The translations under genes and the position numbers were made by a program. Source: Eledone cirrhosa (taxonomy: Eukaryota). Taken from it: DNA of 64,000 nucleotides. Where the stretch lies: contig OZ024743.1 in NCBI GenBank assembly GCA_964016885.1, positions 251,224,001 to 251,288,000 of the forward strand, in the 5' to 3' direction. Shown in pieces: positions 121 to 39,007 of this stretch. The stretch's first letter is position 1, and every line of letters begins with the position of its first letter. The notes beneath the pieces are model-generated. The model ran no database searches, had not been told where the DNA came from, and was given only the letters and a program-made list of their open reading frames with translations.

Positions 121-406
121 TGCAAAAGTTCTATTTAAAATTGTTGGGATACAAGTAAATATTTTTATAACTGATATAAAGCACTCGACAAGTATTTGGA
201 GTAGATATACGATATTATACTATCCAGATGGCTTCCAAAAATAATGGTTGCATTTTAAAAGGGTACGTCAAAGCTTATTTGTAAAACTGTTATATATTGT
301 ATTTTGTCTGATGAAGGCATACCATAATTTAATTTGGTATCCCTGAAATATGTATAATGAAATAAATATGGTTTTATAAATATAGTTTCCATTTATTAAT
401 ATCGTA
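121..406 (+). mobile_element. (TA)n-flanked HHR-bearing non-autonomous element (family H1); ~121-217 is an inverted arm, ~218-406 the forward arm
   Basis: Lies between two (TA)n tracts; homologous to 38571-39007 and 24795-25057; contains an HHR at 300-364. Confidence 0.7.
300..364 (+). ncRNA. Type I hammerhead ribozyme motif (family H1), predicted AUA cleavage
   Basis: tattttgt-CTGATGA-aggcatacca..tggtatccct-GAAA-tatgtATA-atgaaata; stem I tattttgt/atgaaata (2 G-U), stem II agg-c-atacca/tggtat-c-cct. Confidence 0.7.
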
Positions 407-431
407 TATATATATATATATATATATATTT

Positions 432-497
432 GTGGCCTAGCGGTAGGTACTAGAGATGGTGGAGATCCTGGCCTTGAGTTCAATCCTGGTCAGGAGG
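432..497 (+). mobile_element. Degenerate tRNA-derived SINE head fragment
   Basis: A-box-like gtggcctagcggt and B-box-like gagttcaatcc. Confidence 0.4.
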
Positions 498-636
498 TAC
501 ATGTAATATGAATGTATGTATAGTATACTTGGCAATATACCGTACGTTTAATTAAAAACAATTAGAAGACCATACACTATCAGTTTTAAAGTAGTGACTA
601 TGTCACTTACTTCTTTTCGGCAAAAGAAGGGAGAGA

Positions 637-678
637 AGCTGACAGTCTGTTTCACGCTGGTTGGTGTTCATCAGAGCC
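637..678 (-). ncRNA. Type I hammerhead ribozyme motif, predicted GUC cleavage
   Basis: Reverse complement ggct-CTGATGA-acaccaaccagcgt-GAAACAG-A-CTGTC-agct; stem I extended by ttttcggc..agggag / ctccct..gccgaaaa. Confidence 0.75.
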
Positions 679-947
679 ACTCACTCCCTGCTTCCGCCGA
701 AAATTATAGAAGCTTGATTCTTATAGAATTCCAGTAATAATCAGGAGATGATTATACAGAGCGATTGCCGGTCCAGCAAAAATTAGGTATTAGGATTGGT
801 GCTCTGAAATAACGATGTATACATGAATGTATGTATAGTATATTTGGCAATATACCGTATGTTTAATTAAAAACATTTAGAAGACCATATGCTATCGGTT
901 TTAAAGTAGTGACTATGTCGCTTCTTTTCGCTGAAAGAAGGGAAAGA

Positions 948-989
948 AGCTGACAGTCTGTTTCATGCTGGTTGGCGATCATCAGGTCA
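948..989 (-). ncRNA. Second, more degenerate HHR motif of the 315-bp repeat
   Basis: Reverse complement CTGATGA-tcgccaaccagcat-GAAACAGACTGTC; proximal stem I mutated. Confidence 0.55.
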
Positions 990-1897
990 CGCACTCCCCT
1001 GCTTCTGCCAAAAATTATAGAAGCTGGATTCTTATATATATATATATATATATATATATATAAAATCCTTATATATGTATATATATATATATATATATAT
1101 ATATATATAGATGTAAAGGATTTTGTGTCCTAATACTTTTTGTAAGTATAGATTACTAAGCTGATTAATGGTATTACTGGTATCATCTCATCCACATAGA
1201 CAAACACACACACATACATACATATACATATATAAAAGTAGAGGAAGAATATGGAGTTGTTTTATATTTCATATGCTTGTGCAAAATTCTGTGTTATTAT
1301 CTGTGCAAGTTTATGTGTATGTGTGTGTTTCTGTATATATATGTACTTGTGTATCCCTGTGTATGTAAATGACTGAAAGACTGCAAAGTAAAAATGTATA
1401 TAAATGAAGAAATGTTGTAGGAAATATGAAAATATGTTAAATAATTGATAAAGTTACCTCCCCCTGACCTCTCCACCATAACTAACATTGCTCTACCAAA
1501 CATGGTTCATCAAGAATATATTGGAATGTGGAGACAATTTCATTGAAGTACCTTTTGAATATTCTGTTTTCTCTTTCAAGTATAGCAAAGAATGTTGTGA
1601 CTGGGCTCTCATCTCAGCAACCCTTAGACTACTTAAAATGAGATGAAAAAAGAATATATTAAAAGTAAAATATGAATAAAAAGGAAGCTAATAAATAAAA
1701 CATTGAAAATATGCAAATATATATTTAGAAAATGTCTCAAAAATATGAGAAAATATTGGGAAAATATGACAATGGTAATTATGATGATGCTAGTAATGAT
1801 AATGGTGATGATAATGATGATTTTTATAATGTTTTCCAATTTAGGCAAAAGGCCAGCAAGTTTTGGTGAGGGCATAGTGTATTATATTGGTTCAATA

Positions 1898-2086
1898 ATA
1901 ATAATAATAATTGTTTCTACTTTAGGCACAAGGCCAGCAATTACCCAGTGCATTACTGGTACTTTATTTTATCGACCCCGTAAGGATGAAGGCAAAGTCA
2001 ACCTCGGCGGGATTTGAACTCAGATCGTAAAGGGACGTAACTATGCTGGAAAGCATGGCGTCCGACCCTCTACCGATGCTGCCAAT
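1898..2086 (-). mobile_element. tRNA-derived SINE with Nin/Deu-like central domain
   Basis: Reverse complement has tctgagttcaaatcccgccgaggttgactttgccttcatccttacggggtcgataaaataaagtaccag and an (ATT)n tail; same family as 10.7 and 47.3 kb. Confidence 0.75.
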
Positions 2087-36944: not shown

Positions 36945-37253
36945 ATATATATATATATATATATAAAACAAATAACGAAACGAAATTAAATTTCGTTTCG
37001 CTTTTAACTCACTTTTGTATGACTGACGCTTAAACAATTAAGTTAAAGTGTACATCTACATATGTATACGGAAGTATTAGTATGCATATAAATACACACA
37101 TGTATACATATGTACATGTACTCAGCTTTTCACTAGACACTTTACAGTGAGTGTCAGCTAGTCTGTATGTAACCACACAGGCGGACCGGGTTTTAGAGTC
37201 ATACGAGTTTTCAAGGAAACACATTTCCTCTATTCTCCAGAGGGCCAGACAGG

Positions 37254-37298
37254 AATATTGGACTAGTTTCGATGTTATTACATCTCATCAGCAATATT
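37254..37298 (-). ncRNA. Type I hammerhead ribozyme, GUC cleavage
   Basis: Reverse complement aatattg-CTGATGA-gatgt-aata-acatc-GAAAC-TA-GTC-caatatt. Confidence 0.9.
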
Positions 37299-37797
37299 TA
37301 CCCATCTTCCGGCTTCTCTGGAGAATTGTAAAAGCACATATCGTTATATGCTTTTTCTATGAAAATTAGTAGTGGGTAGACTAATTTGCATAGAACGTGA
37401 GTCATTGTACGCACCGGTTCAGCGGAAACGATAAAAACAAATAACGAAACGAAATTAAATTTCGTTTCGCTTCTAACTCACTTTTGTATGACTGACGCTT
37501 AAACAATTAAGTTAAAGTGTACATCTACATATGTATACGGAAGTATTAGTATGCATATAAATACACACATGTATACATATGTACATGTACTCAGCTTTTC
37601 ACTAGACACTTTACAGTGAGTGTCAGCTAGTCTGTATGTAACCACACAGGCGGACCGGGTTTTAGAGTCATACGAGTTTTCAAGGAAACAATGACTCACG
37701 TTCTATGCAAATTAGTCTACCCACTACTAATTTTTATAGAAAAAGCATATAACGATATGTGCTTTTACAATTCTCCAGAGAAGCCGGAAGATGGGTA

Positions 37798-37842
37798 AAT
37801 ATTGCTGATGAGATGTAATAACATCGAAACTAGTCCAAAATT
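37798..37842 (+). ncRNA. Type I hammerhead ribozyme (one stem I mismatch)
   Basis: aatattg-CTGATGA-gatgtaataacatc-GAAACTAGTC-caaaatt. Confidence 0.85.
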
Positions 37843-38258
37843 CCTGTCTGGCCCTCTGGAGAATAGAGGAAATGTGTTTCCTTGAAAACTCGTATGACTC
37901 TAAAACCTGGTCCGCCTGTGTGGTTACATACAGACTAGCTGACACTCACTGTAAAGTGTCTAGTGAAAAGCTGAGTACATGTATATATGTGTGTATTTAT
38001 ATGCATACTAATACTTCCGTATACATATGTAGATGTACACTTTAACTTAATTGTTTAAGCGTCAGTCATACAAAAGTGAGTTAGAAGCGAAATGAAATTT
38101 AATTTCGTTTCGTTATTTGTTTTTATCGTTTCCGCTGAACCGGTGCGTACAATGACTCACGTTCTATGCAAATTAGTCTACCCACTACTAATTTTCATAG
38201 AAAAAGCATATAACGATATGTGCTTTTACAATTCTCCAGAGAAGCCGGAAGATGGGTA

Positions 38259-38303
38259 AATATTGCTGATGAGATGTAATAACATCGAAACTAGTCCAAT
38301 ATT
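38259..38303 (+). ncRNA. Type I hammerhead ribozyme with canonical core, cleavage after GUC at 38296
   Basis: 7-bp stem I, 5-bp stem II with G-C closing pair, palindromic stem III ACTAGT; distal ttctccagag/ctctggagaa extends stem I. Confidence 0.9.
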
Positions 38304-38570
38304 CCTGTCTGGCCCTCTGGAGAATAGAGGAAATGTGTTTCCTTGAAAACTCGTATGACTCTAAAACCCGGTCCGCCTGTGTGGTTACATACAGACTAGC
38401 TGACACTCACTGTAAAGTGTCTAGTGAAAAGCTGAGTACATGTACATATGTATACATGTGTGTATTTATATGCATACTAATACTTCCGTATACATATGTA
38501 GATGTACACTTTAACTTAATTATATATATATATATATATATATATATATATATATATATATATATATATA

Positions 38571-39007
38571 TGGAAAGTTATATTTAAATTGTTGGGTTAC
38601 AACGAGTAAATATTTATAACTGATATAAAAGCACTCAACAAGTATTTGGAGTATATATATCTCTATCTATTTCCTCTCTCTATATACCTCTCTCTGTTTC
38701 TTTACATGAAGTTCTTCTCTTTATCTATCTTTCTATCTCTCTCTATTTAGTTGCATGCATTTCTTCTTTTTCTTCGTTTTTCTTTCTTTCTTTCTCTTTA
38801 CAACTGTCCATAATATTTTTACTGCCAAATCAACTTTTCAAATGCAAGTCGATGTTGAAAGGTATGTCGAATCTATTTATTTATAAGACTGTCTATATTG
38901 TATTTTGTCTGAAGAAGGCATAACATATTGTTAATATGATATCCCTGAAATATATATAATGAAATAAATATGGTTTTATAAATATAATTTCCATTTATTT
39001 AATATCG
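38571..39007 (+). mobile_element. Family H1 element with HHR at 38901-38966
   Basis: tattttgt-CTGAAGA-aggcataacatatt-gtt-aatatgatatccct-GAAA-tatatATA-atgaaata; homologous to 121-406; (TA)n on both sides. Confidence 0.75.

Follow-up and report, generated by a model that had tools for sequence, protein, structure and literature searches.

The stretch analyzed here, called the window, comprises 64,000 nt of the Eledone cirrhosa genome (assembly GCA_964016885.1, contig OZ024743.1, positions 251,224,001 to 251,288,000) and lies in a 3.0-Gb animal genome rich in (TA)n. It carries a series of inserts, several with hammerhead ribozyme sequences, that are related to Penelope-like elements (PLEs) or resemble retrozymes (Table 1); the family letters (A, B, C, D, E/N, F, J) are labels of this analysis. 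An earlier note, made from the sequence alone, had listed eight sites as inverted pairs, each with a minus-sense left arm and a plus-sense right arm relative to the ribozyme strand. Seven of these (121-406, 21335-21444, 24208-24470, 24795-25057, 31981-36944, 36965-38521, and 38571-39007) indeed consist of a minus arm followed by a plus arm. The remaining site, 24643-24784, is one continuous minus-sense family F arm without a plus arm; it faces a single arm at 24540-24612 tail-to-tail over a TA run. The listed sites represent six sequence-distinct families (A three times, B, C, D, E/N, and F). Two inserts had been listed too short, their tailed ends having been overlooked: D already begins near 21262, and E/N extends to 24521. 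Only the two arrays (B and C) bear a whole ribozyme on each arm; the left arm at 121-406 is scarcely more than an inverted tail, and that at 38571-39007 is tail alone. Single-arm copies at 19709-20041, 24540-24612, and 49368-49491 and a pair at 20058-20200 had not been listed. TA runs flank nearly all inserts (e.g. 103-121, 405-429, 36943-36965, 38521-38571, and 39008-39062), and these (TA)n flanks mask any target site duplication.

Table 1. Inserts and target run in the window (short end and tailed end: the two 3′ end positions of a family; PLE, Penelope-like element; ORF, open reading frame)
Feature	Position	Strand	Remarks
Family A insert, left arm	122..217	-	Inverted tail, tailed end at left TA run; contiguous body and tail copies in loci L139, L173, L099
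Family A insert, right arm	219..404	+	Hydra-type PLE 3′ end; type I hammerhead 308-356; short end
Family J single arm	19709..20041	+	3′ end of GIY-YIG PLE ORF family; hammerhead 19798-19832; tailed end; unlisted
Family F head-to-head insert	20058..20200		Short end left, tail-only arm right; unlisted
Family D head-to-head insert	21262..21450		Minus arm ~21262-21391, tailed end; plus arm 21401-21447, short end
Family E/N head-to-head insert	24209..24521		Minus arm 24209-24322, short end; plus arm 24303-24521, tailed end; hammerhead core from 24363
Family F single arm	24540..24612	+	Short end
Family F single arm	24644..24785	-	Tailed end; no inverted pair
Family A (subfamily A2) head-to-head insert	24796..25052		Minus arm 24796-24962, tailed end; plus arm from 24960, short end; without whole hammerhead core
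(TA)n target run	31873..31980		
Candidate retrozyme B, left arm	31981..32328	-	1.1 units; short end; hammerhead core 32140-32116
Filler at B central junction	32329..32366		38 nt, partly element-derived
Candidate retrozyme B, right arm	32367..36942	+	14.8 × 310-bp units; 15 hammerheads; tailed end
Candidate retrozyme C, left arm	36966..37690	-	469-bp unit; tailed end; hammerhead core 37291-37267
Candidate retrozyme C, right arm	37688..38520	+	Short end; hammerhead cores 37805 and 38266; 3-nt microhomology with left arm
Family A head-to-head insert	38572..39007		Tail-only minus arm 38572-38659; plus arm with hammerhead 38909-38958, short end
Family D-like single arm	49368..49491	+	Short end; hammerhead core 49433; unlisted

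Orientation was scored against sense sequences built on the hammerhead strand of each family and cut from copies in which body and 3′ end are contiguous. A hammerhead descriptor located cores in both arrays, B and C, as well as in several single copies. Sixty evenly spaced 10-kb pieces (600 kb) were sampled from the genome, and a stricter hammerhead descriptor found 28 ribozymes in these samples as compared with none in the same sequence reversed. Clusters of family matches were split at TA runs of at least six units. Those touching an edge were left out, which gave 95 sampled clusters and 291 clusters in targeted loci and their flanks.

Two-arm inserts sit head-to-head in (TA)n, with their 3′ ends outward. 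The evenly spaced samples contained 33 head-to-head, no tail-to-tail, and 62 single-arm clusters (33 vs. 0, binomial p = 2 × 10−10). The polarity that had been described thus holds, but the statement that hammerhead elements are inverted pairs was overgeneral, given the one-armed clusters; 62 of 95 is an upper bound for these, since partners more than 1.2 kb away or very short go undetected. The targeted loci yielded 100 head-to-head, no tail-to-tail, and 191 single clusters. Same-family arms faced each other tail-to-tail only across a TA run (two sampled cases, 11 others, and one in the window), as expected for separate insertions into one run. Among the first 100 exact matches listed for each family, minus preceded plus in 8 of 8 two-strand arrays of B, in 15 of 15 clusters of C, and in 20 of 20 opposite-strand neighbors of A within 5.1 kb; these counts were made by hand, and a few of the A neighbors, spaced by kilobases, are separate inserts. 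Contigs from the public run X2 contained 12 head-to-head B joints at differing breakpoints and no tail-to-tail joint, so the pattern is independent of this assembly. No public-run contig spanned the window's own B junction, and these runs are uninformative on it. Exact patterns were used for the match lists; a similarity search with the 310-bp unit gave no match, as very common words are skipped.

In each well-sampled family, the 3′ ends next to TA fall at two positions, 36-99 nt apart. We call them the short and the tailed end; the stretch between them is the PLE 'tail'. One short and one tailed end were found in 27 of the 28 sampled two-arm inserts with both ends assignable (five more were unassignable) and in 83 of 88 others (12 unassignable). 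Independent choice of ends would yield one of each in at most half. Exact end lists for B over 0-287 Mb of C1 agree: all 40 opposite-strand two-end clusters were short/tailed, four further short/tailed pairs lay within larger clusters, one pair was on the same strand, and 87 ends were unpaired, many of them because exact patterns miss variants. No tailed/tailed inverted pair occurred in these lists. Over the whole genome, tailed ends number about 1,000 for B and 1,800 for C. Thirty B loci anchored on the tailed end comprised eight with a short-ended partner arm, one single arm, one running into Ns, and 20 cut by the locus edge. Six two-arm PLE copies bearing an open reading frame (ORF) obey the rule (L096, L100, L102, L222, L223, and L225). 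Three candidates were rejected on inspection: (i) the apparent short/short insert L309 is tailed/short; (ii) a tailed/tailed candidate in the C end list is two inserts, since L052 ends at a TA run; and (iii) what looked like a tail-to-tail join in L271 is the central junction, duplicated. No strong structure common to the tails emerged from folding (z between +0.1 and −2.7); a GAG(T/C) motif in a short hairpin is seen repeatedly in them. No very short partner arm with at least 8 of 10 matches was found at single-arm copies with a 5′ TA run (27 sampled and four in the window). By eye, a few family F single-arm copies have 8-nt partners.

The two arms of an insert also tend to share sequence variants. 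Among 53 B inserts, arm haplotypes were concordant in 48, with at least one shared variant in 37; four of the discordant inserts differ at one site and one (L284) at three. Shuffling of arms gave a mean of 44 discordant inserts (minimum 36 in 2000 permutations), i.e. about nine concordant by chance. Since 38 of the 53 had been picked as short/tailed pairs, this set is no test of end types. Both arms of C inserts agree in haplotype by inspection. For 40 of 54 inserts of older families, an arm was closer to its own partner than to the median arm of other inserts.

Arms stop at largely independent 5′ points, and either arm may be the longer one. For B, the tailed arm was longer in 31 and shorter in 21 of 52 inserts. 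From 95 short/tailed inserts of single-unit families, 73 could be scored for nesting (22 were ambiguous). In 43 of these, the arms are non-nested, the short-ended arm extending further 5′ than the tailed arm; 16 showed the reverse, and 14 were near-equal. Limits of the references, or genuine stops close to the ribozyme, may account for some of the near-equal arms. Families F, D, and Neptune often have both arms ending at one spot close to the ribozyme stems; an identical F junction is present in three haplotypes, and these shared stop points suggest a structural stop.

Junctions between the arms were examined for B with insert-specific units, since haplotype variants confound the calls. With 47 of 49 loci resolved, 30 junctions showed 1-6 nt of microhomology, the feature that the earlier note had wished to see scored, while 3 were blunt and 14 contained filler. 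At least 2 nt were shared in 26 of the 33 clean joins and at least 3 nt in 20; random breakpoints would give 18% and 7%, respectively. Polymerase theta end joining typically leaves such microhomology joins, along with templated fillers. Two junctions hold captured sequence, possibly from template switches: in L310 this is a 54-nt piece of family F, and in L128 it is 272 nt of foreign GC-rich sequence.

A 42-mer of family A has 13,750 exact matches genome-wide, and a first look gave 10,595 GIY-YIG candidates (150 scored). Twenty fetched GIY-YIG loci were examined, and 10 translated ORFs read as reverse transcriptase (RT)–GIY-YIG proteins of a type that we take, from motifs, to be Neptune. Pfam matched RVT_1 and GIY-YIG in the ORF of L092 and GIY-YIG in that of L225. 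Judged by their predicted proteins, autonomous endonuclease-bearing (EN+) Penelope-like copies are present, with a single ORF encoding a PLE-type RT plus a GIY-YIG domain at the C terminus. The pseudo-long terminal repeats (pLTRs) of L092 are direct, and those of the six ORF-bearing copies named above are inverted with short/tailed ends. The family A end lies 1565-1660 nt downstream of Hydra-type ORF matches in three copies, and the family F end 1064-1158 nt downstream of Hydra-like ORF matches in two; an E/N relative lies downstream of a PLE ORF in one locus, and family J overlaps the end of a third PLE ORF type. Given these positions downstream of PLE ORFs, the A, F, and E/N sites are most simply 5′-truncated PLE 3′ ends rather than small non-autonomous templates. 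The parent of family A appears to be a Hydra-clade PLE: it combines a DKT motif (L221), CxCx5C (L221 and L224), a canonical hammerhead, and a (TA)n target; Pfam gave no match for three Hydra-type ORF pieces. By eye, the pLTR of the Neptune-type copy L092 and family F (L179 and L050) show apparent hammerhead variants TTGAAAA, TTGAGAA, and CTGAGAA for CTGANGA.

B and C are built differently, from low-GC tandem units of 310 and 469 bp with one type I hammerhead per unit. The units are non-coding (longest stop-free frames of 59 and 84 amino acids, respectively) and self-paired (circular fold z −4.5 and −10.3). By these features, the arrays fit non-coding non-LTR retrozymes. Rfam returned HH9 matches for C below the gathering score only, as well as many microsatellite-driven miRNA matches. 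In each of the public runs X1, X3, and X6, the 310-bp unit was present as one contig of 340 letters, which is as long as a cyclic unit should be; it may stem from a circle or a tandem array. Some arrays (L115, L125, and L129) have periodic unit variants, with period 2 in C and a repeat of seven units in B; multimeric templates or unequal exchange at a later time may lie behind them.

We favor, with a probability of roughly two in three, the reading that coupled twin priming makes the PLE and retrozyme inserts in (TA)n: a PLE protein would cleave the two target strands and start copying a single RNA at two fixed sites. A PLE RT–GIY-YIG protein, probably a dimer, would nick both (TA)n strands, as has in vitro precedent, and the two nicks would prime on the same RNA, one of them at its short and the other at its tailed site. 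The top-strand nick would give minus-sense cDNA growing from the left flank and the bottom-strand nick plus-sense cDNA leading into the right flank; by this geometry, both 3′ ends would point outward. The one-of-each ends and shared haplotypes suggest that the primings are coupled and usually use one template, and the junction microhomology indicates that the cDNA ends are joined to each other. Their 3′ ends would pair via 1-6 nt, each templating the second strand of the other, sometimes with filler. Where the second priming fails, a single cDNA joined to the far TA end would leave a one-arm copy. As the retrozyme arrays carry the same signature, PLE proteins likely move B and C as well, and twin priming in trans on circular or multimeric RNA would produce homogeneous multi-unit arms in one event. 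In its fullest form, the proposal is that coupled twin priming, at two fixed sites of one RNA molecule, is how PLEs integrate, that the two cDNAs act as mutual second-strand templates, and that several-kb animal retrozyme 'satellite' arrays are written in one such event by two enzymes moving around the same circular RNA in a PLE complex; we hold it tentatively, at somewhat less than even odds. The earlier note had linked the inserts to PLE integration and to priming from both sides of a break, and both ideas survive. Its single mechanism acting on many small RNA templates in trans is retained for non-coding B and C, but A and F (and the E/N relative) lie downstream of PLE ORFs, and one kind of mechanism does not mean one enzyme, since the genome holds at least three PLE protein types.

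The nearest competitor, which we nevertheless consider unlikely, is an asymmetric dimer holding two RNAs, usually from the same source locus, that primes both sides. It would give the same polarity and microhomology joins without strand displacement, and it accounts for the mixed inserts L284 and L139; yet to draw 48 of 53 concordant arm pairs from a pool of many haplotypes it needs a single active source per event, and it needs a separate reason for the pairing of one short with one tailed end. Self-priming or fold-back, in which one cDNA or antisense template copies itself, has been put forward for rotifer PLEs (PMC3846280) and was also an option in the earlier note. Shared haplotypes would follow from it; 30 of the 73 scored inserts have nested or near-equal arms; and families F, D, and Neptune show repeated junction hot spots. 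It cannot, however, produce the 43 inserts in which the tail is in one arm only and further 5′ sequence only in the other, so simple fold-back is excluded for those, and the B tailed arm is longer or shorter in the numbers given above. As a general route we regard it as improbable; it may play a minority role for near-symmetric copies.

Equally improbable in our judgment is that arms and arrays form after insertion, by DNA rearrangement, gene conversion, or unequal crossing-over of single pLTR copies. Local amplification has been suggested for retrozyme arrays (bioRxiv 10.64898/2026.07.22.740005), and the periodic unit variants and the duplicated junction in L271 show that some later change does occur. 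Fixed short and tailed ends at TA on both sides and the absence of tail-to-tail joins would, however, be left unexplained, and the ORF-bearing PLE copies obey the same rule. Least credible, to the point of being negligible, is the view that the inserts are miniature inverted-repeat transposable element (MITE)-like DNA transposons bounded by terminal inverted repeats, or were copied from a master unit that was itself inverted. Inverted ends at TA and four F inserts with a common junction recall such elements, but the two ends are unlike each other (short vs. tailed), breakpoints vary among B inserts, the common F junction occurs in three haplotypes, and families run on into RT/GIY-YIG ORFs. This explanation is refuted for A, B, C, F, and J.

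Several points weigh against coupled twin priming itself. Six of 116 inserts are homotypic in their ends, and one-armed clusters prevail among those sampled. In the older families, the own arm was the best or tied match in only 28 of 54 inserts; in the B insert L284, the haplotypes of the two arms clearly differ, and L139 is a 5′-5′ join of family A with family N. Haplotypes would match as well if two RNA molecules came from the same source locus. With a single linear RNA, the enzyme at the tailed site would have to displace or pass the other cDNA. No PLE ORF partner of B, C, or D was found in the fetched loci (<2 Mb of 3.0 Gb). The support is genomic footprint throughout. Finally, the start sites used by PAc in vitro did not differ between strands, and this alone does not predict one-of-each ends (PMC11167929).

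The proposed route resembles twin priming of L1, which Ostertag and Kazazian reportedly described in 2001: two target-primed cDNAs on one RNA are said to give an inverted 5′ part with a microhomology join, the second site being variable and the arms without overlap. In the present inserts, unlike that picture of L1, both sites are fixed and arms often overlap fully.

A further parallel is the Poseidon protein PAc, which in vitro cuts and extends both strands of an AT-rich target from two internal start sites flanking the tail and is a predicted dimer (Frangieh et al. 2024, PMC11167929). Those start sites match the two fixed 3′ ends found here; that study found start sites not to differ between strands and, in the text available, does not deal with inverted products. 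The head-to-head form, one-sided tail, and TA bias are already published: EN+ PLEs have an inverted 5′-truncated copy by the 5′ end, most commonly head-to-head and often with the tail at one end only, as well as (TA)n targets and a hammerhead in the pLTR (Craig et al. 2021, PMC8557442; Arkhipova et al. 2013, PMC3846280). Our inserts share the head-to-head form, one-sided tail, (TA)n target, and hammerhead, but their tails measure 36-99 nt as compared with the published 30-40 nt, and the short/tailed rule, haplotype sharing, non-nesting, and microhomology counted here appear in the available parts of these sources qualitatively or not at all, with a self-priming model. Family A and its related ORF share the DKT motif (L221), CxCx5C linker, canonical hammerhead, and (TA)n insertion with the Hydra clade as described in section 11 of PMC8557442, and here have a long 3′ UTR (untranslated region), ~1.6 kb to the family A end. 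In PMC4209133, hammerheads on opposite strands are noted as pairs with spacings of 100-700 bp. Metazoan non-LTR retrozymes are described as tandem repeats with units of 150-450 bp, and PLEs have been suggested as their drivers (Cervera and de la Pena 2020, PMC7229834; Li et al. 2026 bioRxiv). B and C likewise have tandem units that are AT-rich, non-coding, and strongly self-paired, each with one type I hammerhead whose stem III is palindromic; the C unit (469 bp) slightly exceeds that range, and in contrast to the published tandem repeats, B and C are two-armed head-to-head arrays with PLE-type ends. The main texts of PMC7229834 and bioRxiv 10.64898/2026.07.22.740005 contain no relevant use of 'inverted' or 'orientation', although their supplements may show inverted arrays. 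In the literature searched, from which most subscription papers, the PLE papers of 2004-2006 among them, were absent, neither twin priming for PLEs nor two-armed retrozyme arrays were found.

Other repeats accompany the inserts in the window. Two degenerate tandem copies (~314 bp) of a further hammerhead unit lie at 480-1030 on the minus strand, with cores near 653 and 964; the unit is 76% similar to B over its tail region, and a plus arm was not found. Long interspersed nuclear element (LINE) copies at 28075-31428 and 49680-52567 are 91% identical and contain apurinic/apyrimidinic (AP) endonuclease and RT domains, the latter copy with an open frame of 850 amino acids and a weak PHD match. At 20219-20512 and 23933-24200, 3′ fragments of another LINE-like repeat have TA-rich ends adjoining PLE inserts, and such ends may seed PLE targets. 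A repeat at 19244-19551 and 31546-31855 (95% identical) has a tRNA-like part (Rfam, 19492-19555 and 31796-31859) and is likely a short interspersed nuclear element (SINE). Long GT-rich tandem satellites occupy 53334-64000 and 2709-5252, the latter with a 43-bp unit.

What is new here are quantitative constraints on the mechanism of PLE integration and on the mobilization of retrozymes. The origin of tandem and inverted PLE structures is named an open question in PMC8557442, and our counts argue against the self-priming model of PMC3846280. For the PAc in vitro system, coupled twin priming predicts that each strand of one target starts at a different site on the same RNA. Earlier support for a role of PLEs in retrozyme mobility came from co-occurrence and sequence similarity; the arrays described here would add direct genomic evidence that retrozyme arrays are PLE-made insertions, and abundant elements of this kind would be misannotated as MITEs or satellites.

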